Positions 1-22,230 of a DNA stretch of 24,000 nucleotides are shown here, piece after piece. Position numbers and translations under genes: made by a program. Below the pieces are notes generated by a model, which saw nothing but the letters and a program-made list of their open reading frames with translations, searched no databases and had not been told where the DNA came from. Source of the DNA: Acidocella facilis ATCC 35904 (GTDB lineage: Bacteria > Pseudomonadota > Alphaproteobacteria > Acetobacterales > Acetobacteraceae); the NCBI RefSeq assembly GCF_000687875.1, contig NZ_JHYG01000009.1:33634-57633 (forward strand), given 5' to 3'. Every line of letters starts with the position of its first letter. The first letter of the stretch is position 1.

Positions 1-688
1 CGCGCCGGCGGCGCACGATCGGCGGGTAGGCCGCCAGGAAGGCCTGGCCGACATCGCGGGTGAAGGCGAAATCCGCCGCGACATCGCCACTATCGAGATA
101 ATCATAGAAAATCCCGCCGGCGCCGCGTGGTTCATTGCGATGCGGGAGGTAGAAATATTCATCGCACCAGGCTTTGAATTTTTCATAATAGCCGGGATCG
201 TGCGCATCGCAGGCGGCCTGATAGGCGGCGTGGAAGAAGGCGGCATCCTCGGTGGCTTCCGGCGTGCCGGGCTGCAGCGGGGTGAGATCCCCGCCGCCGC
301 CGAACCAGCCCTTGGCGGTGACGATCATGCGGGTGTTCATATGCACCGCCGGGATTTTCGGGCTGCGCGGATGCACGACCAGCGAAATCCCCGCCGCCCA
401 GAACGCAGCACCTGCCTCGGTGCCGGGAATTTTCGCGGCGAAATCCGGGCTCAGCGTGCCATCCACCACCGAGATATTCACCCCGGCCTTCTCGAATACC
501 TGGCCGCGCAGCACGCTCATCGTGCCGCCGCCGCCGCCCGGGCGCTCCCAGCTGGCGCGCTGGAACCGGGCAGCGCCGCCGGCTTCCTGCTCGATCGTCT
601 CGAATTCGGCGCAGATCCGGTCGCGCAGGGCGGCGAACCAGGTGGCGGCGTCCTGTTTCAGGGCGGCATGGGGGGGCGGGCTGGTCAT
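1..688 (-). CDS. hemF: Oxygen-dependent coproporphyrinogen III oxidase, 5' part (3' end runs off the window)
   Basis: Manual minus-strand translation from the ATG at 688-686 gives MTSPPPHAALKQDAATWFAALRDRICAEFE...RPGGGGGTMSVLRGQVFEKAGVNISVV...AGISLVVHPRSPKIPAVHMNTR...GWFGGGGDLTP...HRNEPRGAGGIFYDYL. These are typical HemF motifs. The ORF is missing from the supplied track because it is open at the window edge. Confidence 0.85.
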   Translation of the reverse strand, partial: MTSPPPHAALKQDAATWFAALRDRICAEFETIEQEAGGAARFQRASWERPGGGGGTMSVLRGQVFEKAGVNISVVDGTLSPDFAAKIPGTEAGAAFWAAGISLVVHPRSPKIPAVHMNTRMIVTAKGWFGGGGDLTPLQPGTPEATEDAAFFHAAYQAACDAHDPGYYEKFKAWCDEYFYLPHRNEPRGAGGIFYDYLDSGDVAADFAFTRDVGQAFLAAYPPIVRRRR

Positions 689-797
689 GGCGCCTGCTTA
701 AGCCATGCCCGGCCATCGATCCACACTTGAAATTTTTTCATTGCCTTGCCACGCTGCAACCAAGGGAGGAGACTTAACTCCTCCAGGGAGCGAACAC

Positions 798-1355
798 ATG
801 GCTGAACCAACAGCGGATGCGCTTGCGGCGCATGGGACCGAGACCCGGCGCGACTTCCTGAGGCTTCTGGCCGTGGCGGGCGGCGCCATCGGGGTGGGGG
901 CGATCGCCTGGCCGCTGATCGAAGCGCTGAACCCGGACGCGGCGGGGCTGGAAGCGGCCCGGCCGGTGGTGCTGGTTTCCGATATTGCCGAAAATGCCAC
1001 CAAGACGGTGCAATGGGGCGGGCAGACCATCCTGATCCGCCGGCTGACCGACCAGCAGCTCGCCGCCGCCCAGATTGTGCCGATGAGCGCGCTGGTGGAC
1101 CCGCAGGAGGTCTCCGAACGGGTGGCGCCAGATGATGGGCATATCGTCGTGGTGATCGGCATGAATACCGGCGCGCCCTGCGCCTTGCAGGGGAGTGCGC
1201 CGGGCGATCCGCGTGGCGATTATGGCGGCTGGGTCAGCCCCTGCGATGGCAGCGAATATGACGCGCTGGGGCGGGTGCGGGCCGGGCCGGCGCCGCGAAA
1301 CCTGGCCATCCCGCGCTTTCGCTTCATCGATAAACACCAACTCCAGCTGGGTTAG
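798..1355 (+). CDS. petA: Rieske-fold ubiquinol-cytochrome c reductase iron-sulfur subunit homolog (PetA-like) lacking all four 2Fe-2S ligands
   Basis: The ATG at 798 is preceded by GGGAG 8 nt upstream. A Tat-like motif (TRRDFL) is followed by a TM helix. The C-terminus aligns colinearly to canonical PetA (GGWxxPCxGSxYDxxGRxRxGPAPRNLxIP). Box I reads NTGAPC instead of CTHLGC, and box II reads SPCDGS instead of CPCHGS. Confidence 0.8.
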   Translation: MAEPTADALAAHGTETRRDFLRLLAVAGGAIGVGAIAWPLIEALNPDAAGLEAARPVVLVSDIAENATKTVQWGGQTILIRRLTDQQLAAAQIVPMSALVDPQEVSERVAPDDGHIVVVIGMNTGAPCALQGSAPGDPRGDYGGWVSPCDGSEYDALGRVRAGPAPRNLAIPRFRFIDKHQLQLG

Positions 1356-1364
1356 GACGCGCCA

Positions 1365-2423
1365 ATGCAATCGGAGGCGAAACAGGGCGTTGCCTGCCCC
1401 TATCTGATCAAGGATCGCGCGCCGGGCGGGGCCTGGCATGCGACCTTGCCAACGCTGCTGGGGGCGCTGCTGGCGCTGCTGCTGGCCTCGGGCGCGGTGC
1501 TGGCGGTGTATTATAATCCGCGCGACGCCTATGGCGCGGTGCAGATGATCAATCGCGAGGTGAATGGCGGCTGGCTGGTGCTGGGCTACCATAATACCGG
1601 CGCGTCTTTGGCGTTTCTGGCGCTATATGCGCAGCTGTTCCGGCTGTTGCTGACCCGCGGCTACCGTGGCCCGGCGCGGTTTGCCTGGATGCTCTGGGTG
1701 AAGCTGCTGGCGGTGCTGCTGCTCTCCGGCTGGCTGGGCTTCGTGCTGCAGGGCGGGGCAGGGGGCGCGCTCTCGCTCACCCATGCCAGCGATGCCGCGC
1801 TGACCCTGCCGGGCTTTCCCGGCGCGGTGGCGCTGTGGATTTTCGGTGGCCCGTCCGGCCCCGGCACGTTGGCTCGGCTGCTGGTGTTCCATGTGCTGCT
1901 GGCGGCTTGCCCGGTTTGGGTGATCTGCTGGGCGCGCTGCGCGGCACGGCGGGCGCGGCCGGCGCCGGAGGGCCGGGCGGTGGCGTTCTGGCCGGTCTAT
2001 GCGTCGCAATATTTCGCGGCCTTGGCGGCGCTGGCGCTGTTCTTCACGCTGCTGCTGGCCTTCGCCCCGCATTGGGGGCAGAGCGCCCAGGCCATGCTGC
2101 CGGGCGATGTGCTGCCGATGGTAATCTCCTATCCCTGGTATTTGCAGCCGGTGGCGCATCTTGCCGGGCTGATCCCGGGCGATGGCGGGGCGATTTTGGT
2201 GGTGATTCTGGCTGCGGCCACGCTTTACGCGCTGCCCTGGCTAGATCGTTCCAACGGCGCCCCACCCGGCCGGCTCTATCGCGGGCTGACGCTGCTGCTG
2301 GGGCTGGATGTGCTGGCTCTGGGCTGGGCCAGCGCGCCGGTGCTGCAGATCATTTTCGGCATCTGGTTTTTCATCCATTTCCTCGTGCTCACCCCCCTCG
2401 TCACCGCCGCGGAGGCCAAATAA
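1365..2423 (+). CDS. petB: Cytochrome b homolog (PetB-like), short (352 aa) and divergent, with two of four heme His ligands substituted
   Basis: Recognisable cytochrome b blocks are present (REVNGGW, YHNTGASLAFLALY, LLVFHVLL, AFWPVY, PWY). It is polytopic and hydrophobic and sits between petA and petC. Its stop overlaps the petC start (TAATG). Confidence 0.75.
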   Translation: MQSEAKQGVACPYLIKDRAPGGAWHATLPTLLGALLALLLASGAVLAVYYNPRDAYGAVQMINREVNGGWLVLGYHNTGASLAFLALYAQLFRLLLTRGYRGPARFAWMLWVKLLAVLLLSGWLGFVLQGGAGGALSLTHASDAALTLPGFPGAVALWIFGGPSGPGTLARLLVFHVLLAACPVWVICWARCAARRARPAPEGRAVAFWPVYASQYFAALAALALFFTLLLAFAPHWGQSAQAMLPGDVLPMVISYPWYLQPVAHLAGLIPGDGGAILVVILAAATLYALPWLDRSNGAPPGRLYRGLTLLLGLDVLALGWASAPVLQIIFGIWFFIHFLVLTPLVTAAEAK

Positions 2424-3115
2424 TGCGCGTTTTGCTGATGTCGGGCTTAGCACTCGGGCTGCTGGCGGGTGGGGCGGCGCAGGCGCAGACCCCGTCTTTC
2501 CCCTCCTCCGGCGCCTTCGGGCATATCGATGATGAAGCCGCCCAGCGCGGGCTGGCGGTGTATCAGGGCGTGTGCGCCAGCTGCCACAGCCTCAACCAGC
2601 TACATTACCGGGATCTTGCGGGAATCGGGCTGGATACGGCGCAGATCGCCGGGCTTGCCAATGCGGTGAAGCTGGCCACCGGCCAGCCCGCCACCCCGGA
2701 TGATGTGTTCAAGGCCCCCGCGGCGATGAGCATGGGCGGGGCGGTGCCGCCGGATCTCTCCAGCATCGTCGCCCAGCGCCGCGATGGCACGCGCTATATT
2801 TACCGCTTCCTCACCGGCTTCGCCCCGGCCCCGGCCGGGGTGACGATGTTGCCAGGGCATTATTACAACCGCGCTTATCCGGGCGGGCAGGTTGCCATGC
2901 CGCCGGTGCTGCGGGACAATGCGGTGACTTACGCGGACGGGACCAAGGCCACACAGGCGCAGGAAGCCGCGGATGTCGCGGAGTTTCTGACATGGGCGTC
3001 CGATCCAAACCTCACCGCCCGGCATGTTCTGGGGATCAGGGCGGGGATCTTCTTCGCCTTCCTGACGCTGGTGGCGCTGGCGACCAAAAGGCGGATCTGG
3101 AAGCAGGAGGGCTGA
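2423..3115 (+). CDS. petC: Cytochrome c1 (PetC), apparently intact
   Basis: The ATG at 2423 overlaps the petB stop. Signal peptide MRVLLMSGLALGLLAGGAAQA is present. The heme motif CASCH lies at 2573-2587. PPDLS, YIY, AMPP (Met ligand) and VTYADGTKAT..DV.EFL.WA..P blocks are conserved, and there is a C-terminal TM anchor. Confidence 0.85.
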   Translation: MRVLLMSGLALGLLAGGAAQAQTPSFPSSGAFGHIDDEAAQRGLAVYQGVCASCHSLNQLHYRDLAGIGLDTAQIAGLANAVKLATGQPATPDDVFKAPAAMSMGGAVPPDLSSIVAQRRDGTRYIYRFLTGFAPAPAGVTMLPGHYYNRAYPGGQVAMPPVLRDNAVTYADGTKATQAQEAADVAEFLTWASDPNLTARHVLGIRAGIFFAFLTLVALATKRRIWKQEG

Positions 3116-3669
3116 GCGGCGTCGCGGCTTCGGCGCGGGCCTGCCGCGTCTGCCATGACATCTTGCCGCTGGGGGCGCGGCCGGTGTTCCGGGTCTCGCC
3201 CACCGCGAAGCTGCTGGTGATCTCGCAGGCGCCGGGCACCAAGGTGCATGCCAGCGGCCTGCCGTTCGACGATGCCTCCGGCGATCGGCTGCGGCATTGG
3301 ATGGGGATTGGCCGGGAGGTTTTCTACGATGAAACCCGGCTGAATTTCATGCCAATGGGCTTCTGCTATCCCGGCCGGCTGCGCAATGGCGGCGATGCCC
3401 CGCCGCGCCCGGAATGCGCGCCGCTCTGGCATGAGGCGCTGTTGCGCCATCTGCCGCAGCTTGAGCTGATCCTGCTGGTCGGCGGCTATGCGCAAAGGCG
3501 CTATCTGGGCAAGGGCAGCATGACGCAGAGGGTGCGCGCGCAGGCGCCGGGGCGGTTTCTGCCGCTGCCGCACCCCTCCTGGCGGACCACCGGGTGGGAG
3601 AAGAAAAACCCTTGGTTTGGTGAGGAGATTTTGCCGAAATTGCGGGCGGAGGTGGCGCGGCTGACGTGA
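2992..3669 (+). CDS. Uracil-DNA glycosylase superfamily protein (start uncertain)
   Basis: Motifs ISQAPG (motif A-like) and HPSWRT (motif B-like) are present, with a CRVC near the N-terminus. The only in-frame ATG (2992) overlaps petC by 124 nt. A CTG at 3112 overlaps the petC stop (CTGA). A TTG at 3163 is a further option. Confidence 0.6.
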   Translation: MGVRSKPHRPACSGDQGGDLLRLPDAGGAGDQKADLEAGGLSGVAASARACRVCHDILPLGARPVFRVSPTAKLLVISQAPGTKVHASGLPFDDASGDRLRHWMGIGREVFYDETRLNFMPMGFCYPGRLRNGGDAPPRPECAPLWHEALLRHLPQLELILLVGGYAQRRYLGKGSMTQRVRAQAPGRFLPLPHPSWRTTGWEKKNPWFGEEILPKLRAEVARLT

Positions 3670-3750
3670 TCGTCATCATCGCGCCGGGTTGAATTTTCGC
3701 CGGGCTGCCCAAGCTGTTGCAACATAGATGTTACAGCGAAGGAGGCGCGG

Positions 3751-4440
3751 ATGGTTCCGGCCTGGCTCAATGATCTGGCGATGCTGTCCCTGGCCGCCGC
3801 GTTCATCAGTGCGCTGATTATTTTGTGGGATCTGCGTGCCCGCCCGCAGGCGATGGCGGTGATGAACCCGGTCTGGCCGGTCACCGCCTTATATTTCGGG
3901 CCGCTCGGGCTCTGGGCCTATTGGCGGCTGGGGCACGCGGCGCCGGCATCGCATCACGCGCATAATCACCATCATCATCACGGCGATGACAAACCGTTCT
4001 GGGTGCAGGTCTTCGCCGGCACCACCCATTGCGGGGCGGGCTGCACGCTGGGCGATATTGTCGCGGAATTTCTGGTGTTTTTCTCAGGGCTGGCGATCGC
4101 CGGCTCGGTGTTCGCGGGGCAACTGGTGCTGGATTATGCCTTCGCCTTCCTGCTCGGCATCGTCTTTCAATATTATTCCATCGTGCCGATGCGCGGGCTG
4201 CAGCCGGCCGAGGGCATCAAGGCGGCGGTGAAGGCGGATTTCTGGTCGCTCACCGCCTTCGAGGTCGGGCTGTTCGCCTGGATGGCGCTCACCCGCTTCG
4301 TGTTTTTCGGCCCCAGCCTGCAGCCGGACAGCGCCACCTACTGGTTCATGATGCAGATCGGCATGATCATCGGCTTCGCCACGGCGTTTCCGATGAACTG
4401 GCTGCTGATCAAATCCGGGGTGAAGGAGCCCTGCATGTAG
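3751..4440 (+). CDS. DUF4396-like integral membrane protein with a His-rich loop
   Basis: AGGAGG lies upstream of the ATG at 3751. The protein has multiple TM helices, the motif THCGAGCTLGD, and the loop HHAHNHHHHHGDD. Confidence 0.7.
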   Translation: MVPAWLNDLAMLSLAAAFISALIILWDLRARPQAMAVMNPVWPVTALYFGPLGLWAYWRLGHAAPASHHAHNHHHHHGDDKPFWVQVFAGTTHCGAGCTLGDIVAEFLVFFSGLAIAGSVFAGQLVLDYAFAFLLGIVFQYYSIVPMRGLQPAEGIKAAVKADFWSLTAFEVGLFAWMALTRFVFFGPSLQPDSATYWFMMQIGMIIGFATAFPMNWLLIKSGVKEPCM

Positions 4441-8939: not shown

Positions 8940-9209
8940 ATGGCCAATATCGCATCTGCCCAGAAACGCATCCGCCAGACGCTGAAGCGCACGGCGCGCA
9001 ACAAGGCGCGCAAGTCCCGCGTCCACACCTTCATCCGCAAGGTTGAAGAGGCCGTGGCGGCTGGCGACAAGGCAGCCGCGCAGGCTGCGTTGATCGCTGC
9101 CCAGCCGGAGCTACAGCGCGCGGCTGGCAAGGGCGTGCTGAAGGCGAATGCGGTTGCCCGCAAGATCTCCCGCCTGTCAGCCAGCGTGAAGGCCGTCGCC
9201 GCCGCTTAA
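8940..9209 (+). CDS. rpsT: 30S ribosomal protein S20
   Basis: [38 protein letters not shown]... is a canonical bS20 N-terminus. The protein is 89 aa. Confidence 0.95.
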
Positions 9210-9260
9210 TGCGCCGGTTGGGATAATCCTCCGGGTTGTCCCAAAAAATATACGTTTTTG

Positions 9261-9308
9261 AACCGCCGTCATCTTGTTGTAATGGCAAGATACGGCGGTT
9301 TTCTATTC
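9261..9308 (+). terminator. Rho-independent terminator of rpsT
   Basis: AACCGCCGTCATCTTG / CAAGATACGGCGGTT forms a stem with one bulge and is followed by TTTTCTATTC. Confidence 0.7.
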
Positions 9309-9650
9309 TTGGTTGCAAGCCCAGGCTTTTGCTATGGCAAGTAGGTAGGCGCAAAGAAAGTTTTTTATTTGTAGTCTTTTGAATTTAAACGTTTTTTTCG
9401 AAGTGTCAGCAGCTTGTTCGCAAAGCTGTCGCATTTGTCGGCTTGCTTCGGCGAGGCGTTTAGACCTAATGTCCAAGCCTCAATTGACTGTTCAGGACTG
9501 TCTCATTTCTGAGAAGGCGCCCTTTTCCCAAGGGTTTGCTTTGCGGAATCGGTCCTTTGCGGCGCTGTGTTCGGGGTTAGGCAAAGCAGAATGGGTATCA
9601 ACCTAGAGATCAATTCCTCTGGTCAGGGCGGCGCTGCGCTGCAAACCTCC
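9309..9650 (+). promoter_or_regulatory. Low-GC dnaA upstream/leader region with an AT-rich tract
   Basis: By direct count, 9361-9400 is about 20% GC and 9361-9420 is 30% GC, against a high-GC background. Direct repeats are present: GACTGT x2 (9486-9501) and CTTTGCGG x2 (9539-9562). Confidence 0.4.
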
Positions 9651-11036
9651 ATGATATGGAATGAAGAGGCACGGCTGGCTGAGCAATGGGGCCGCGTGCG
9701 CGCCCGGCTGCAGGCGGAAGTGGGTGAGGTCGAATATCGCACCTGGCTGAAGCAGGTGAGCTTTGGCGGTGTTGCCGGCGACGAGGCGGTGGTGCTGCTG
9801 CCGACCCGCTTTCTGCGCGACTGGGTGAACAAGGAATATGGCGAGCTGATCGCCTCCTTCTGGCAGGCTGAGAATCCGGGCGTGAAGCGGGTTGAGTTCC
9901 GCACTGGCGCGCCCTCCGCGCGTCCGGCCGCGCCGGATCTGGCCGAGCCGGCCGCGCGGCCGGTGGCCGGGCAGGCGGCGATGCCGGCGCCGCGCCAGGA
10001 GAACATGGCCGGGCTGGACCAGCGTTTTACCTTCGAGACCTTCGTCGTCGGCAAGCCGAACGAGTTCGCCTATGCCTGCGCGCGGCGGGTGGCCGAGAGC
10101 CCGGCGACGCCGGGCTTCAACCCGCTGTTCCTTTATGGCGGTGTCGGGCTGGGCAAGACCCATCTGATGCACGCCATCGCCTGGGAGCTGTCCACCAATG
10201 CGCGCGGCGGGCGGCCGGTCTCGGTGGCCTATATGTCCGCCGAGCGCTTCATGTACCGCTTCATCAACGCGCTGCGCTCGCAATCCACGCTGGAATTCAA
10301 GAACGAGCTGCGGTCCGTCGACGTGCTGATGATCGACGATCTGCAGTTCCTGATCGGCAAGGACAACACCCAGGAAGAATTCTTCCACACCTTCAACGCG
10401 CTGGTGGATGCGGGCAAGCAGATCGTCATCTCCGCCGACAAATCCCCCTCCGACCTCTCGGGGCTGGAGGACCGGCTGCGTACCCGCCTGGGCTGCGGCA
10501 TCGTCGCGGATCTGCACGCCACCACATTCGAGCTGCGCTATTCCATTCTGGAGGCCAAGGCGCAGCGCGCCGGGGTGGAGGTGCCGCCGAAGGTGGTGGA
10601 ATTCCTCGCCCGCAAGATCACCAGCAATAACCGTGAGCTGGAAGGCGCGCTGAACCGCCTCGTCGCGCATGCCAATCTGTTCAACCGGCAGGTGACGCTG
10701 GATACCGCGCATGAGGTGCTGCACGATGTGCTGAAGGCGCATGACCGCAAGATCTCCATCCAGGAAATCCAGAAGCGCGTCTGCGAGCATTATAATATCC
10801 GCATCGCCGAGATGAGCTCCGCCCGGCGGGCGCGCAACATCGCCCGGCCGCGCCAGGTGGCAATGTACCTGGCCAAGCAGCTGACCTCGAAGAGCCTGCC
10901 CGATATCGGCCGGCATTTCGGCGACCGCGACCATACCACCGTCATGCATGCGGTCTCGCGGGTGACCGAGCTGATCGGCCAGGATGCCGCTTTCGCCGAG
11001 GATGTCGAGCTGCTCAAGCGCATGCTGGAGAACTGA
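9651..11036 (+). CDS. dnaA: Chromosomal replication initiator protein DnaA
   Basis: Walker A GGVGLGKTHL, the box VII region, and the C-terminal DNA-binding helix (RPRQVAMYLAKQLTSKSLPDIGRHFGDRDHTTVMHA) are present. The start at ATG 9651 was chosen by N-terminal similarity (WGRVRARLQAEVGE..Y.TWL). GTG 9567 and ATG 9591 are alternatives. Confidence 0.92.
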   Translation: MIWNEEARLAEQWGRVRARLQAEVGEVEYRTWLKQVSFGGVAGDEAVVLLPTRFLRDWVNKEYGELIASFWQAENPGVKRVEFRTGAPSARPAAPDLAEPAARPVAGQAAMPAPRQENMAGLDQRFTFETFVVGKPNEFAYACARRVAESPATPGFNPLFLYGGVGLGKTHLMHAIAWELSTNARGGRPVSVAYMSAERFMYRFINALRSQSTLEFKNELRSVDVLMIDDLQFLIGKDNTQEEFFHTFNALVDAGKQIVISADKSPSDLSGLEDRLRTRLGCGIVADLHATTFELRYSILEAKAQRAGVEVPPKVVEFLARKITSNNRELEGALNRLVAHANLFNRQVTLDTAHEVLHDVLKAHDRKISIQEIQKRVCEHYNIRIAEMSSARRARNIARPRQVAMYLAKQLTSKSLPDIGRHFGDRDHTTVMHAVSRVTELIGQDAAFAEDVELLKRMLEN

Positions 11037-11058
11037 ACCCGCCTTTGCCGGCGGTGAG

Positions 11059-11088
11059 AAAGGGGCCCGCGGGGCCCCTTTTCTTTGG
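11059..11088 (+). terminator. Rho-independent (potentially bidirectional) terminator after dnaA
   Basis: A perfect 10-bp stem (AAAGGGGCCC-GCG-GGGCCCCTTT) is followed by TCTTT, with an A-run on the 5' side. Confidence 0.75.
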
Positions 11089-11186
11089 CCGAATCCCTGG
11101 CTTTGCAAGCCCCTGGTCAGCTTGCTACTCTAAGGCCCGAATCGCGCCGCAAACCAAGTGATTCGATCGCAGTCTGGAAGGGTATC

Positions 11187-12314
11187 ATGAAGTTCAAGGC
11201 CGATCGCGCCACGCTGATGAAGTCGCTCGCTCACGTGCAGAACGTGGTGGAGAAGCGCAATACCATTCCCATTCTCGCCAACGTGCTGCTCTCGGTGCAG
11301 AATGGCCGGCTTTCCATCGCCGCGACCGATCTGGAGATCGCGCTGGTGGAAGAGGTGGCGGCGGAGACGCTGCGCGACGGCGCCATCACCGTGCCGGCGG
11401 CGACCTTGTATGAGATTGTCCGCCGCCAGCCGGAGAATGCGGTGATCGAGCTCGATCATCCGGGCGGGGACGCGCCGCTGGCGCTGCGCGCCGGGCGCTA
11501 TTCCACCAGCCTGGTGGCGCTCTCGGTCGAGGAATTCCCGAAGCTCGATGCCGGCAAGCTCTCGCACAGCTTCGTGCTCTCGGCGATCGAGCTGCGCGGG
11601 CTGATCGACCGCACCCGCTTTGCCATCTCCACCGAGGAGACGCGCTATTATCTCAACGGCATCTATCTGCACGCCGCCGAGGGCCAGGACGGCCCGGTGA
11701 TCCGCGCGGTGGCGACGGACGGGCATCGTCTGGCGCGCGTTGAGGAGCCGCTCCCGAGCGGGGCGGCTGGTATGCCCGGCATCATCGTGCCGCGCAAGAC
11801 CGTGACCGAGCTGCGCAAGCTGCTGGATGAGGCGAGCGGCGAGGTGGAGGTGGCGCTTTCCGAGACGCGCATCCAGTTCACCATCGGCACCATGCGCCTG
11901 ACCAGCAAGCTGATCGATGGCACCTTCCCGGATTATGACCGCGTGATCCCGCGGGGGAATGACAAGATCCTGCGGGTGGACAAGAAGGATTTCAACGATG
12001 CGGTCGGCCGCGTCTCGGCGATTTCGGCGGAGAAGCACCGGCCGGTGAAGCTCTCGCTGGCGAAGGAGCTGCTGGTGATCTCGGCGGCCTCCGCCGAGCA
12101 GGGCTCGGCCTCCGAGGAGCTAGGCGGGGATCTGGTGGATTACCAGTCCGGGCCGTTGGAAATCGGCTTCCAGGCGCGCTATCTCTCGGATGTCACCGAC
12201 CAGATCAAGTCCGGCAAGGTGGAATTCGCCTTCGCTGACGGCGCCGCGCCGACGCTGGTGCGTGAGGAGAATGACAGCTCGGCGGTTTATGTTTTGATGC
12301 CGATGCGGGTGTGA
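11187..12314 (+). CDS. dnaN: DNA polymerase III beta sliding clamp
   Basis: MKFKADRATLMKSLAHVQNVVEKRNTIPILANVLL is a typical DnaN N-terminus. GGAAGG lies upstream of the ATG at 11187. The protein is 375 aa. Confidence 0.92.
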   Translation: MKFKADRATLMKSLAHVQNVVEKRNTIPILANVLLSVQNGRLSIAATDLEIALVEEVAAETLRDGAITVPAATLYEIVRRQPENAVIELDHPGGDAPLALRAGRYSTSLVALSVEEFPKLDAGKLSHSFVLSAIELRGLIDRTRFAISTEETRYYLNGIYLHAAEGQDGPVIRAVATDGHRLARVEEPLPSGAAGMPGIIVPRKTVTELRKLLDEASGEVEVALSETRIQFTIGTMRLTSKLIDGTFPDYDRVIPRGNDKILRVDKKDFNDAVGRVSAISAEKHRPVKLSLAKELLVISAASAEQGSASEELGGDLVDYQSGPLEIGFQARYLSDVTDQIKSGKVEFAFADGAAPTLVREENDSSAVYVLMPMRV

Positions 12315-12321
12315 AGGTTTT

Positions 12322-12347
12322 GTGGCCCTTTTTGAAAAAAGGGCCAC
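12322..12347. repeat. Palindrome GTGGCCCTTTTT-G-AAAAAAGGGCCAC
   Basis: A perfect hairpin lies 8 nt after the dnaN stop. The A/T runs are inside the stem rather than flanking it. Confidence 0.6.
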
Positions 12348-12484
12348 GCCCTCCGGCGGCTTTCCAGCACCGCTTCGCGATGCTGGAACCTTGGCCGCCT
12401 GCGCCCAAAAACGTTTGCGCCTGGGTGCTGGGGGTTTTCCACGCCGTTGCCAGGGCTTCACCGCCCGTGAGCAAAAGTTTTTGC

Positions 12485-12508
12485 TGCCGCTTTTTTCAAA
12501 AAGCGGCA
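12485..12508. repeat. Palindrome TGCCGCTTTTT-TC-AAAAAGCGGCA
   Basis: A perfect hairpin lies 17 nt before the recF start. Its 12-nt core is the reverse complement of the core at 12322-12347. Confidence 0.6.
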
Positions 12509-12524
12509 AAGGACCGCCGTCATA

Positions 12525-13637
12525 TTGCTATCCCGCCTGACGCTCACCGATTTCCGCTCCTACGCCACGCTGCGCTTTGAGGCGCCGGCGCGGCGCCTGG
12601 TGTTCACCGGCCCGAACGGCGCGGGCAAGACCAATCTGCTGGAAGCGGCCTCGCTGCTGGTCCCTGGGCGCGGCCTGCGCGGGGCAAAATTCGCCGAGCT
12701 GGCGCGCCAGGGCGGCGCCGGGGGCTGGGCGGTGGCCGCACAGTTTTCCAACGGGCTGGAGATCGGCACCGGGGCGGTGGAAGGGGCGCCGGAGCGGCGG
12801 GAATTCCGCCTCAACGGGGTGAAGCCCCGGGCGCAATCGGATGTCGCGGAGCAGCTCGCCGCTGTCTGGCTGACCCCACAGATGGACCGGCTGTTCACGG
12901 ATACCGCCTCCGGCCGACGTAAATTCCTGGATCGCCTGGTGATCGCGCTGGAGCCGTTCCATGCGCGCGAGATCGCGGCCTTCGAGAGTGCCTCCGCCCA
13001 GCGCAACCGGCTGCTGGCCGAGCCGCGTTACGACCCTGCCTGGGTGGCGGGGCTGGAGGATGCGATGGCCCGCCATGCCGTCGCCGCCACGGCGGCCCGG
13101 CTGGGGCTGATCGCGCGGCTGAATGCGAGCCTGGAGGCGGGCGCGGCGGACCCGTTTCCGCGGGTGACACTGGGGTTGGCCTGCCCGATCGCGCAGCTTC
13201 TGGACGCGGCTGCGGCGCTGGATGTGGAAGACTGGCTGCGCGGCGCGCTGGCGGCCTCGCGCGCCACCGATGCGGCGGTGAAATCCTCAGGCTACGGCCC
13301 GCAGAAGGCCGATCTGCTGATTGCCGATGCCCAGGCCGGCCGCCCCGCCGCGCTCTCCTCCACCGGCCAGCAGAAGGCGATGCTGATCGGCATCGTGCTC
13401 GGCCATGTCGCTTTGATTACCGCGCTGCGGGGCGCCCCGCCGCTGCTGCTGCTGGATGAGCCGCTGGTGCATCTGGATGCGCAGCGGCGCGGCGCCTTGT
13501 TCGCTGCCCTGGCCCGGATGGACGCGCCGGCCTGGCTGACCGGCACGGATCAGGAGCTGTTCGCGGGGCTGGACGCCGCGCGTCTGGCCGTGCGCGAGAG
13601 CCTCTTAGAGCATCAAGCTTTTCGCTTGAGGCTCTAA
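12525..13637 (+). CDS. recF: DNA replication and repair protein RecF
   Basis: TTG start. LTLTDFRSY, Walker A GPNGAGKTNLLEA, the signature STGQQKA and Walker B LLLLDEP are present. The last 10 codons and the stop lie inside repeat copy 2. Confidence 0.9.
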   Translation: MLSRLTLTDFRSYATLRFEAPARRLVFTGPNGAGKTNLLEAASLLVPGRGLRGAKFAELARQGGAGGWAVAAQFSNGLEIGTGAVEGAPERREFRLNGVKPRAQSDVAEQLAAVWLTPQMDRLFTDTASGRRKFLDRLVIALEPFHAREIAAFESASAQRNRLLAEPRYDPAWVAGLEDAMARHAVAATAARLGLIARLNASLEAGAADPFPRVTLGLACPIAQLLDAAAALDVEDWLRGALAASRATDAAVKSSGYGPQKADLLIADAQAGRPAALSSTGQQKAMLIGIVLGHVALITALRGAPPLLLLDEPLVHLDAQRRGALFAALARMDAPAWLTGTDQELFAGLDAARLAVRESLLEHQAFRLRL

Positions 13638-19387: not shown

Positions 19388-19455
19388 TTTTTATTGATTT
19401 GATTAACCTGTCGTTTTAAATCTGATTCCGGAATAATCGCGCGGAGAAGCGTTTG

Positions 19456-22230
19456 ATGTCCGGCTTGACGCAAGGCGGCCCGATCTTGCTGGGAACGGCA
19501 ACCCCCGCCTCGTTGAGCCTGGCGAGCGGACTTTCCCTCACCTTGGCCGGCCAGGCGGCAACAGACAGCCCGGCGCTGGTCAGCGGGCTTTATGGCGATC
19601 AATCCTCGAACTGGACCATCGCGACCAGCGCCACGCTGGTCGCGGAGCTGACGCTGGCCAGCGGCGCGGCTGTCGGGGTGGGGCTCGAACTGGCCGGGGC
19701 CGGCACCATTGATAATGCTCTGGGTGGGACGCTGTCCGGCAATCTGGAAGGGGTGGTGCTGGCTTCGGGCGGGATCCTGGTCAGCCAGGGGCTTATCGAA
19801 GGGGGCGTTGCGGGCGGGGTAGGCTTGCAGCGGATCGGCGTGCGCATGGCCAGCGGCGCGCTGGAGAACGACGCGACCGGGACGATCACTGGTGGCGCCT
19901 ATGGTGTCAGCCTCGGCGGAGGTGGTGTGGTCAGCAATGCGGGCAGCATTTCCGGCGGGTTGGCGGGGATGGTGCTGGGTGCCAGCGGGCTGTTGGAAAA
20001 TCAGGCAGGCGGGGTGGTGCAAGGCGGGCTGGCCGGGCTGGTGCTGGGCGGCGGCGCCAGCCTGGTCAATCAGGGCGAGGTCCAGGCCACGAGCATCGCC
20101 GCCGGGCATGACGGGGTGATTTTGAGCGCCGGCGCCTATCTCGGCAATGCGGGGGTCATTGCGGGGTTCGATGCGGCTTATGCCGGGGCGGGTCCGGTGC
20201 GGCTGAATAATGGCGGCACCATGCTGGGCGGCGGGAGCATCGCGCTGGCCTTCCCGGCGAGCGGCTATGGCTTCACCACCGGTGCCGCGGTGGCGCTGGC
20301 GGCGGGGCAGGTCCAGAATACCGGGCTGATTGAGGGCGCCAGCGCGCCGTCCGGTTCCGTCTTGCGGCAGGGCACGGCGGGAGCCGGCATGGTGCTCGGC
20401 GCTGGCACATTGGTGAATGGCGGCGTGATTGCCGGAGGCGGCGGAGGCTCTGCCGGGTTCGGCGGCGTTGGCCTGTCCGGCGGGGCGGGGCTGGTTGCCA
20501 GCAATGATGGCACGCTGCTGGGCGGTGGCGGCTTCTATGGCGGGGCCGCGGCGATGCTGGCCGGCGCCACCTTGGTCAATCGCGGTTCGATCGCCGGCGG
20601 CAGCGGGACGCAGACCGGCGGCAACGGTGTGGTGCTGATGAACGATGCCCTGCTGGTGAATGCGGGCAGCATCCAGGGCGGGGCCGGGACGCGCTATGGC
20701 TGGGGCGAAGGGCTGGGGGCGGGGGTGGCGCTCTATACCGGCACGGTGCTCAATCAGGGGCTGCTCTCGGGCGGCGGCGGCGCCTTTATCGGGCTCTGGA
20801 TGGGCGGGGGCAGCGTGCAGAATATCGGCACCATCCTCGGCCATGCGGCGCTGGCGATGCAGGGGGGCAGCTTCACCAATGGCGGGCTGGTCGAGGGCGC
20901 GGCGGTGGCGCTGGACCTGGCCGGGGGGGCTTTCACCAATGCCGGCACGCTCGCCGGCAGCTTCGCCGCCTATATCAGCGAAGCCAGCCCCAGCCTCACC
21001 GTCGCCCCGGGCGGCGTGTTCGAGGGGAGGGTGACGGCCGTGAGCGGCGGCGGCACGCTGCTGCTCTCCGGCAGCCATGGCACATTGGATATGGGGGCAA
21101 GCTTTTCCGGCTTTTCCGAGATCTCCTTCGCCGGCACGGGCTGGATGCTGGCCGGGGCGGTGGCCGAGCTTGCCGGCGGCCAGACCCTCGCCGGGTTCGG
21201 TGCGGGGGATGTTCTGCGCCTGGACGGGGTGAGTGCCAGCAGCGCCAGCCTCGTCGCCGGGACCGGGCTGGTGCTGAGCGGGGCCAGCGGGACGGAAACC
21301 ATCGCCCTGGCCGGTTTCGATCAGGCCGGGCCGGTGACGCTCAGCCAGACCGCAGGCGGTGCCGAGATCGTCATCTGCTACCGGCGCGGGACCATGATCC
21401 AGACCGTGGAGGGCGAGCGCGATGTCGTGTCGCTGCGCATTGGCGATGTGCTGCCGACGCGCTTTGGCGGCCGCCAGCCGATTCGCTGGATCGGCCGCCA
21501 GCGTTTCGGGCCGGAGGCGCTGCGCGGCCAGCGCGCGCGCTGGCCGGTTTGTATCCAGAAGGGCGCGCTCGGCATGGGCCTGCCGCGGCGCGATCTGTTC
21601 GTCTCCCCGGGCCATTCCCTGCTGCTGGGCGGGGTGCTGGTGTTGGCGGAGGCGCTGGTCAACGGCGTCACCATCACCCAGCCAGAGCCGGCAGAGGCGG
21701 TTGAGTATGTCCTGCCGGAGTTTGAGCGTCATGATTGCCTGCTGGCGGAAAGCGTCTGGGCCGAGAGCTTTGCCGACGGGCCGGACCTGCGCGCGCAGTT
21801 TGACAATGGCGCGGCGTTTCTGGCGGCCCATCCGGGCTGGCAGGCGCCGTCCGCGCTCAGCTTGTGCGCCCCGCGCTTCCTCGCCGGCCCCCGCCTGGCC
21901 GCCGCGCTGCGCCCGTTTCTGCCGCCGCCGCCGGGCTTCGGGGCGCTGCGTGGCTGTATCGACATTGCCGATGGGCGCATGGTCTCCGGCTGGGCGCAGG
22001 ATATCGCCTCACCGCTCTGGCCGCAGATGCTGGAGATCTATGCCGGACGAACCAGGCTGGGCACGGTGCTGGCCTGCGACCATCGGCCGGATCTCGAACA
22101 AGCCGGCATCGGCATCGGCCGCGCCGGTTTCAGCTTCAGGGCGCCGCGCCGTTACAACCCGGCGCGGTTGCGCATTTCCCGTGTGGGGGACGGCGCTTCG
22201 CTCCCCGTTCCGGTGCGCCGCGCCGCCTGA
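19456..22230 (+). CDS. Large Gly-rich beta-helix repeat protein with a C-terminal Hint (Hedgehog/intein-like, Hint_2-type) domain
   Basis: GGAGA lies 8 nt upstream of the ATG at 19456, and a TTG at 19453 is also in frame. About 640 aa consist of degenerate ~20-25-aa repeats (G..L.N.G.I.GG..G..L). The Hint block then begins at the Cys codon 21376-21378: CYRRGTMIQTVEGERDVVSLRIGDVLPT..GGRQPIRWIGRQ...GALGMGLPRRDLFVSPGHSLLL. Confidence 0.8.
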   Translation: MSGLTQGGPILLGTATPASLSLASGLSLTLAGQAATDSPALVSGLYGDQSSNWTIATSATLVAELTLASGAAVGVGLELAGAGTIDNALGGTLSGNLEGVVLASGGILVSQGLIEGGVAGGVGLQRIGVRMASGALENDATGTITGGAYGVSLGGGGVVSNAGSISGGLAGMVLGASGLLENQAGGVVQGGLAGLVLGGGASLVNQGEVQATSIAAGHDGVILSAGAYLGNAGVIAGFDAAYAGAGPVRLNNGGTMLGGGSIALAFPASGYGFTTGAAVALAAGQVQNTGLIEGASAPSGSVLRQGTAGAGMVLGAGTLVNGGVIAGGGGGSAGFGGVGLSGGAGLVASNDGTLLGGGGFYGGAAAMLAGATLVNRGSIAGGSGTQTGGNGVVLMNDALLVNAGSIQGGAGTRYGWGEGLGAGVALYTGTVLNQGLLSGGGGAFIGLWMGGGSVQNIGTILGHAALAMQGGSFTNGGLVEGAAVALDLAGGAFTNAGTLAGSFAAYISEASPSLTVAPGGVFEGRVTAVSGGGTLLLSGSHGTLDMGASFSGFSEISFAGTGWMLAGAVAELAGGQTLAGFGAGDVLRLDGVSASSASLVAGTGLVLSGASGTETIALAGFDQAGPVTLSQTAGGAEIVICYRRGTMIQTVEGERDVVSLRIGDVLPTRFGGRQPIRWIGRQRFGPEALRGQRARWPVCIQKGALGMGLPRRDLFVSPGHSLLLGGVLVLAEALVNGVTITQPEPAEAVEYVLPEFERHDCLLAESVWAESFADGPDLRAQFDNGAAFLAAHPGWQAPSALSLCAPRFLAGPRLAAALRPFLPPPPGFGALRGCIDIADGRMVSGWAQDIASPLWPQMLEIYAGRTRLGTVLACDHRPDLEQAGIGIGRAGFSFRAPRRYNPARLRISRVGDGASLPVPVRRAA

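Follow-up and report, generated by a model that had tools for sequence, protein, structure and literature searches.

We analysed a 24-kb stretch of Acidocella facilis ATCC 35904 (NZ_JHYG01000009.1, GCF_000687875.1; hereafter the window), which carries three co-oriented open reading frames (ORFs) in the order petA-petB-petC at 798-3115 (+). As far as its sequence and those of its relatives can tell, this petABC operon is a conserved derivative of the cytochrome bc1 complex (complex III) that is unable to run the Q cycle, and is not an artefact or a strain-specific lesion. It lacks the ligands of the FeS cluster and of heme bH as well as both quinone sites, Qo and Qi, and hence quinol oxidation by the Q cycle is not possible. 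The central observation is already known; it was published in 2023 as the "deranged bc1 complex" of acidophilic Acetobacteraceae (Acidocella, Acidiphilium) (Degli Esposti et al. 2023, Microbiol Spectr 11:e00575-23, PMC10715153). An earlier note on this DNA (the original prediction) was aware of no described bc1 variant of this kind; this is wrong, as that article describes it explicitly. What we add are the ratios of nonsynonymous to synonymous substitution (dN/dS) of the three genes, the near-invariance, in 40-76 sequences, of the heme bL histidine pair of PetB and of residues N123 and D150 of PetA, and the conserved coupling and synteny of the operon.

Ligand loss and retention in the three subunits

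For comparison, the best 80 of 458 matches in a genome scan were taken as loci, at least 41 of which belong to a family with the same reduced operon; ligand columns were read from an alignment of 41 related and 33-37 canonical loci. The petA-like gene (798-1355, +; 185 aa), with AGGGAG at 785-790, 7 nt before its ATG, encodes a homolog of the bc1-type Rieske subunit, the iron-sulfur protein (ISP), without cluster ligands. We found a Pfam match to UCR_Fe-S_N (1e-12), a sub-threshold match to the Rieske domain (16.6 vs a cut-off of 20.3 bits) and, with phmmer against the PDB, a match to the Rhodobacter capsulatus ISP (1e-30). The twin-arginine (Tat) motif RRDFL (residues 17-21; 846-860, +), recognised by TAT_signal and TIGR01409, is followed by an N-terminal membrane anchor, and R17, R18, F20 and L21 show little or no variation across the family.

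All four 2Fe-2S ligands of the PetA-like protein are substituted. The remnant of Rieske box 1 (1164-1181, +) reads NTGAPC for canonical CTHLGC, with the Cys ligand replaced by N123, the His ligand by G125 and the disulfide cysteine C128 kept; that of box 2 (1236-1253, +) reads SPCDGS for canonical CPCHGS, with the Cys ligand replaced by S147, the disulfide cysteine C149 kept and the His ligand replaced by D150. N123, C128, C149 and D150 are each present in 42/42 family sequences, and position 147 is occupied by C (28 sequences), S (13) or A (1). The pattern in all 42 sequences is thus N-G/A-C in box 1 and C/S/A-C-D in box 2, versus canonical C-H-C and C-C-H; in the ungapped alignment of family and canonical sequences, C and H occupy the box 1 ligand positions in 33/33 canonical comparators. 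A HMMER pairwise alignment to the R. capsulatus ISP would have made C128 the first ligand cysteine. We dropped this assignment because the ungapped alignment makes C128 the disulfide cysteine, in agreement with PMC10715153. The AlphaFold2 (AF2) model of the PetA-like protein, built with database homologs, predicts its head with a local confidence (pLDDT) above 90, and this head superposes on the bovine Rieske fragment 1RIE with a template modelling (TM) score of 0.93 and a root-mean-square deviation (rmsd) of 1.4 Å.

The PetA search showed a sharp break, in that the 22 best matches (≥51% identity) lack the Pfam Rieske domain and all weaker matches have one. The PetA-like protein nevertheless clears the equivalog cut-off of NCBIfam TIGR01416 (ubiquinol-cytochrome c reductase iron-sulfur subunit) with 119.3 vs 97.4 bits. 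This model is indifferent to the ligands; hence, the protein is automatically annotated as a normal ISP. Ligand-less family members P0234, P0237, P0250 and P0251 are named "ubiquinol-cytochrome c reductase iron-sulfur subunit" in public sources.

Rieske boxes were also altered more widely. Among the 150 best representatives of the PetA-like matches, about 20 lack both boxes and 10 more lack one (among them P0081, P0106, P0114, P0116, P0122, P0128, P0130, P0140, P0156, P0172, P0205, P0222, P0223 and P0227), and a few are plainly frameshifted. Many others resemble full-length bc1-type ISP homologs, with CTF..C together with CPCCGS (His to Cys), CHCCGS or DPCRGA; the SPCDGS box of the window is also found in P0081. 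Other, unnamed lineages may hold ligand-altered Rieske subunits of complex III.

The petB-like gene (1365-2423, +; 352 aa) encodes a cytochrome b homolog with the ligands of heme bL only. It matches Pfam Cytochrome_B (2e-17) and the PDB (phmmer, 1.5e-25), and its AF2 model (pLDDT 86.6) was placed by Foldseek on complex III cytochrome b with a TM score of 0.85 at ~25% identity. The PetB search returned ~75 protein clusters at 42-94% identity, all of those with an organism name being Acidocella or Rhodospirillales, and canonical cytochrome b at ~25% identity only. Both PetA and PetB had been described as ligand-less, which is right for PetA and wrong for PetB, where only the bH pair is lost. H76 (1590-1592, +) and H176 (1890-1892, +) align with bovine H83 and H182, which we take from established structural knowledge to be the heme bL pair. 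Both are kept almost throughout, H76 as His in 76/76 protein-database relatives and 42/42 genomic loci and H176 in 76/76 and 41/42, respectively. The claim that only the c-type heme is functional was thus too strong.

At the first heme bH ligand site (bovine H97) the window has Q90 (1632-1634, +), a position filled by L, H, Y, Q, A or K in the family, and at the second (bovine H196) it has A190 (1932-1934, +), which is likewise variable; each site is His in 37/37 canonical sequences, and no family member has both bH histidines together. The quinone sites are altered as well. YPWY (2130-2141, +) stands for PEWY of the Qo site, a Glu to Pro change, with P257 in 42/42 family sequences and E in 36/37 canonical ones, and the cd-helix WGQMS (Qo) and the Lys/Asp pair of Qi are replaced.

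In contrast to both, petC (2423-3115, +; 230 aa) encodes a canonical membrane-anchored cytochrome c1 with a C-terminal anchor, matching Pfam Cytochrom_C1 over the whole profile (3.5e-59) and the PDB (1.4e-42). We found every element that had been read from the sequence before: the heme-attachment motif CASCH (2573-2587, +), with C..CH in 40/40 family sequences covering the site (41 aligned) and in 32/32 canonical ones; Met159 in AMPP (2897-2899, +), the sixth ligand of the c1 heme, which is M in 41/41 family sequences; and the PPDLS, YIY and VTYADGT blocks. The proposed asymmetry at the level of the operon is borne out by the number of canonical-invariant residues that the family has lost, which is 9 for the ISP, 34 for cytochrome b and zero for c1.

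The classical petABC order and the tight coupling of the genes also stand. The petB-like gene begins 9 nt after the end of petA, and at the TAATG junction (2421-2425, +), as read from the sequence, the petB stop TAA (2421-2423) shares its final A with the petC ATG (2423-2425); a T(A/G)ATG junction between petB and petC was also resolved in 24 family loci. A scan of 500-3800 for promoters and terminators gave no signal above shuffle expectation, and an Rfam scan of the whole window matched no RNA family. Predicted folds, membrane anchors, the Tat signal and gene coupling are kept in all, despite the loss of ligands.

Relatives, selection and chromosomal setting

The family of at least 41 loci comes from A. 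aminolytica, A. aromatica, A. aquatica, strain KAb 2-4 and many metagenome-assembled genomes (MAGs). Among the loci listed, the closest is that of an uncultured Acidocella MAG (L001), at 94-98% amino-acid identity; PetB matches to Acidocella MAGs and type strains run from 94% down to 42%, and canonical alphaproteobacterial cytochrome b is 25-31% identical. Conserved canonical ligands in the orthologs would have indicated a strain-specific artefact; this check came out negative, as the same substitutions recur in at least 41 related loci. The canonical comparators all have CHC and CCH in the two Rieske boxes, HHHH at the four heme-ligand positions of cytochrome b and PEWY, save three single-position exceptions outside the family. 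The petA-like, petB-like and petC genes follow in that order in every family locus with enough sequence, and their frames run uninterrupted both in the window and in 41 loci.

Median identity between family and canonical sequences, relative to that among canonical sequences, is 37 vs 53% for the ISP, 30 vs 62% for cytochrome b and 38 vs 44% for c1. Within the family, the medians are 65% for c1, 61% for the ISP-like protein and 52% for the cytochrome b-like protein, which inverts the usual order. The family has invariant replacement residues of its own (N123 and D150) and dozens of family-invariant residues overall.

We found dN/dS (NG86) of 0.05 for petA, 0.15 for petB and 0.05 for petC between the window and L001, and of 0.05-0.28, 0.09-0.39 and 0.02-0.27, respectively, among the listed pairs with dS(petB) <0.5. 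These ratios, well below 1 for all three genes, indicate that all three are under purifying selection and speak against the neutral decay in relatives that the original prediction had considered.

Within its own clade (L002-L010, L012 and L023, which includes A. aminolytica), the operon differs in its residual ligands, the last of which are gone from the window and L001 but present in most other members. These two have S at ISP position 147 where the clade mostly has C, and Q at cytochrome b position 90 where it mostly has H; in addition, they have a PetB that is shorter by 13-17 residues (352 aa vs 365-369). By these residues and lengths, no other lineage of the clade is as reduced as theirs.

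Two MAGs deserve separate mention. Acidocella sp. SMAG_U15134 (DATJXU01) has two reduced operons, L003 and L016, from separate subclades; their PetB proteins share 68% and 53% identity, respectively, with that of the window. The second copy lies on a 2.5-kb contig, and the bin is either mixed or holds a true duplication. A MAG labelled Rhodovastum atsumiense (JAMFSE01, L038) has an Acidocella-type reduced operon, with NGC and CCD in the Rieske boxes and HLHL in cytochrome b. Rhodovastum is placed among taxa with a functional bc1 in PMC10715153, and the label of this MAG is probably wrong.

The chromosomal setting of the operon is conserved too. Divergent from petA, across a 109-bp gap, lies hemF (1-688, -; oxygen-dependent coproporphyrinogen III oxidase, heme biosynthesis), which runs off the left edge of the window; this adjacency recurs in L001, L004, L007 and L009. 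Downstream of petC are a UDG-family gene, DUF4396, GNAT, hldE and hsp33, then a lipoprotein gene, a cupin gene, rpsT and dnaA-dnaN-recF, with dnaA 6.4 kb from the operon. The order petABC, UDG, GNAT, hldE, hsp33 is common to 19 family loci. This conserved core position near the origin argues for an ancestral copy and against an acquired paralog. The operon looks vertically inherited, and the idea of a paralog undergoing neofunctionalisation found no support. Among the loci from the best 80 of the 458 genome-scan matches there was no canonical Acidocella cytochrome b, and Table S2 of PMC10715153, in a text version without colour coding, notes no extra PetA, PetB or PetC orthologs in those of its Acidocella rows that could be read.

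Other features of the window were recorded. The genes rpsT, dnaA (9567-11036), dnaN (11085-12314) and recF (12525-13637), at 8940-13637, show that the window lies in the region of the chromosomal replication origin; GC content falls to 0.60 at 9001-10000, and near-consensus DnaA boxes number 1, no more than chance. The UDG-family ORF (2992-3669, +), taken from its first ATG (2992), overlaps the final 124 nt of petC, and its Pfam domain starts at residue 69; its true start is probably further downstream. A 925-aa ORF (19453-22230, +) has a Hint_2 domain (2e-37) at residues 641-776 and no Pfam match in the remainder; it lies where GC content (0.72) and GC skew (up to 0.19) are highest in the window.

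Known systems and possible roles of the complex

The operon agrees with the Acidocella type as defined in PMC10715153, that is, an ISP that lacks 3-4 cluster ligands and keeps the disulfide cysteines, a cytochrome b without the bH histidines and an intact c1. In the window, the ISP ligands are gone with C128 and C149 kept, the bH pair is gone and an intact c1 is encoded in petABC, in an Acidocella lineage. The contiguous operon and the genus-level lineage are shared as well, and we see no essential difference from the published description; the window and L001 represent the extreme of reduction within the family. The PetB column of Table S2 is divided into bL and bH; hence, retention of bL was recognised there too.

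Other systems resemble the window in part. By the same article, petBC of Acidiphilium, from the same acidophilic Acetobacteraceae clade, also encodes a cytochrome b without the two bH histidines, but the ISP gene is absent altogether, whereas the window keeps a conserved ISP-like gene. The bc1 of acetous Acetobacteraceae (Acetobacter and Gluconobacter), a related lineage relying on quinol oxidases, is likewise of questionable function (PMC10715153). The Acetobacter loci in our set (L066, L073, L076 and L078), unlike the window, have all ligands (CHC and CCH, HHHH, PEWY), and petA lies downstream of petBC. Cofactor loss with retention is also described for a COX1-like protein of Acetobacter, a ligand-less respiratory subunit of a different enzyme family for which a structural role was proposed (PMC10715153).

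Canonical bc1 (R. capsulatus 1ZRT, Paracoccus 2YIU) shares the gene order, the three folds, a Tat-anchored ISP and a C-terminally anchored c1 with the window, which lacks its 2Fe-2S ligands, bH ligands, Qo Glu and WGQMS, and Qi Lys/Asp; canonical cytochrome b is ~30% identical to that of the window family, compared with 62% among canonical sequences. Set against a catalytically competent bc1, the window thus falls short in the ISP ligands, the four histidines and the Qo and Qi sites, and matches it in c1 (CxxCH, Met and anchor).

We consider it somewhat probable that this is the only petABC of a bacterium of the Acidocella lineage (Acidocellaceae/Acetobacteraceae), inherited vertically and now in the "deranged bc1" state, and that it encodes an assembled complex that is non-catalytic or only partly redox-active. 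The PetA-like protein, the PetB-like protein and c1 would still assemble into a membrane complex shaped like complex III, whose value to the cell would be non-catalytic or redox only in part. It could play a structural part in respiratory supercomplexes, where it would stabilise Complex I, dock cytochrome oxidase or do both; a structural role of the deranged bc1 in stabilising Complex I was proposed in PMC10715153, citing Stroh et al. 2004 on Paracoccus. It could also be a platform on which the membrane-anchored c1 heme relays electrons from periplasmic donors, such as Cyc1/Cyc2-type cytochromes or high-potential iron-sulfur protein (HiPIP), to cytochrome c oxidase (COX), and both roles could apply together. 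In the same article, Cyc2/Cyc1-type components of iron oxidation were proposed as reductants of the c-type cytochromes that serve the cytochrome oxidase still kept by these bacteria. The repurposed or scaffold bc1-like complex of the original prediction therefore survives as a conserved derivative outside the Q cycle, which matches the published hypothesis, and not in its restriction to the c heme.

Several observations weigh against this explanation. Literature searches for expression, proteomics, assembly or activity of bc1 in Acidocella and Acidiphilium found nothing for any member, and the structural role is suggested by analogy with Paracoccus and mitochondria. Where HldE is 88-89% identical, PetB is 61-74%, PetA 60-76% and PetC 72-85% identical; the PetA-like and PetB-like proteins thus change faster than the neighbouring genes, so constraint, though real, is relaxed relative to a catalytic cytochrome b. 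Moreover, the near-invariant bL pair and N123/D150 are not obviously explained by a pure scaffold, which leaves room for a redox role.

Such a role would be fullest if the operon were a neofunctionalised redox module, in which heme bL and heme c1, together with a Rieske-fold head that is free of a cluster or carries a different metal, would form, for example, a linear quinol-to-c1 path, a periplasmic redox relay or a sensor. This is unlikely in our judgment, although the near-invariant bL histidines are in its favour, as are the invariant N123 and D150 at former ligand positions with the disulfide kept, an equally low dN/dS in the ISP-like gene and in c1, and a head predicted to retain the Rieske fold within 1.4 Å rmsd. 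The catalytic elements of Qo (the ISP His, the PEWY Glu and WGQMS) are gone, however, and position 147, once a ligand, may be C, S or A, which speaks against a new fixed metal site. Established bc1 structures also count against the module, since electrons cannot pass directly over the distance from heme bL to heme c1 unless the mobile FeS head carries them. The combined losses in the ISP and at bH also close "back door" quinol oxidation, according to PMC10715153. We are more doubtful still that a mono-heme (bL-only) cytochrome b, together with c1 and a cluster-free Asn/Asp head, performs an electron-transfer or sensing reaction of a kind that is not known in relatives of complex III; if it did, the ligand-altered Rieske subunits of unrelated metagenomic lineages (CPCCGS-type boxes) would be further examples.

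Equally unlikely, in our view, as the redox module is that only c1 matters, as an electron carrier to cytochrome oxidase, with the PetA-like and PetB-like proteins kept solely as its assembly or anchoring partners. Cytochrome c1 has lost no canonical invariant residue and is the most conserved subunit in the family (median 65% vs 61% and 52%), the conserved stop/start overlap couples its synthesis to petB, and Acidocella keeps an apparently functional COX together with alternative routes of c-cytochrome reduction (PMC10715153). Yet c1 carries a membrane anchor and in principle could work by itself, constraint on the ISP-like gene matches that on c1, beyond the apparent needs of an assembly helper, and Acidiphilium dispenses with petA (PMC10715153). 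Decay of the operon into a remnant without function is highly improbable. The loss of cofactor ligands and of both quinone sites would fit it, as would proteins that outpace neighbouring housekeeping genes in divergence, but against it stand the unbroken frames of the window and of 41 loci, the low dN/dS (well below 1) of each gene and the dozens of residues that are invariant in the family. One contig (L059; CAVTSC01, MFD09495.bin.2.33) looked like a natural pseudogene, with petA-like and petB-like split across frames and petC intact. We rejected it because its flanking genes are frameshifted too, and these frameshifts are most likely an assembly error.

The explanation that we favour, a retained complex with its Q-cycle chemistry gone, has consequences for Acidocella. 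Since this genus keeps cytochrome c oxidase and its bc1 is unable to oxidise quinol, electrons must reach cytochrome c by another way. Since the PetA-like protein is named as a normal ISP, metabolic models built on annotation will wrongly give Acidocella a working bc1. A central respiratory enzyme has here lost its chemistry and has still been kept by selection, which makes this family a natural case for testing what complex III does beyond catalysis, for example in assembling supercomplexes or keeping Complex I stable.

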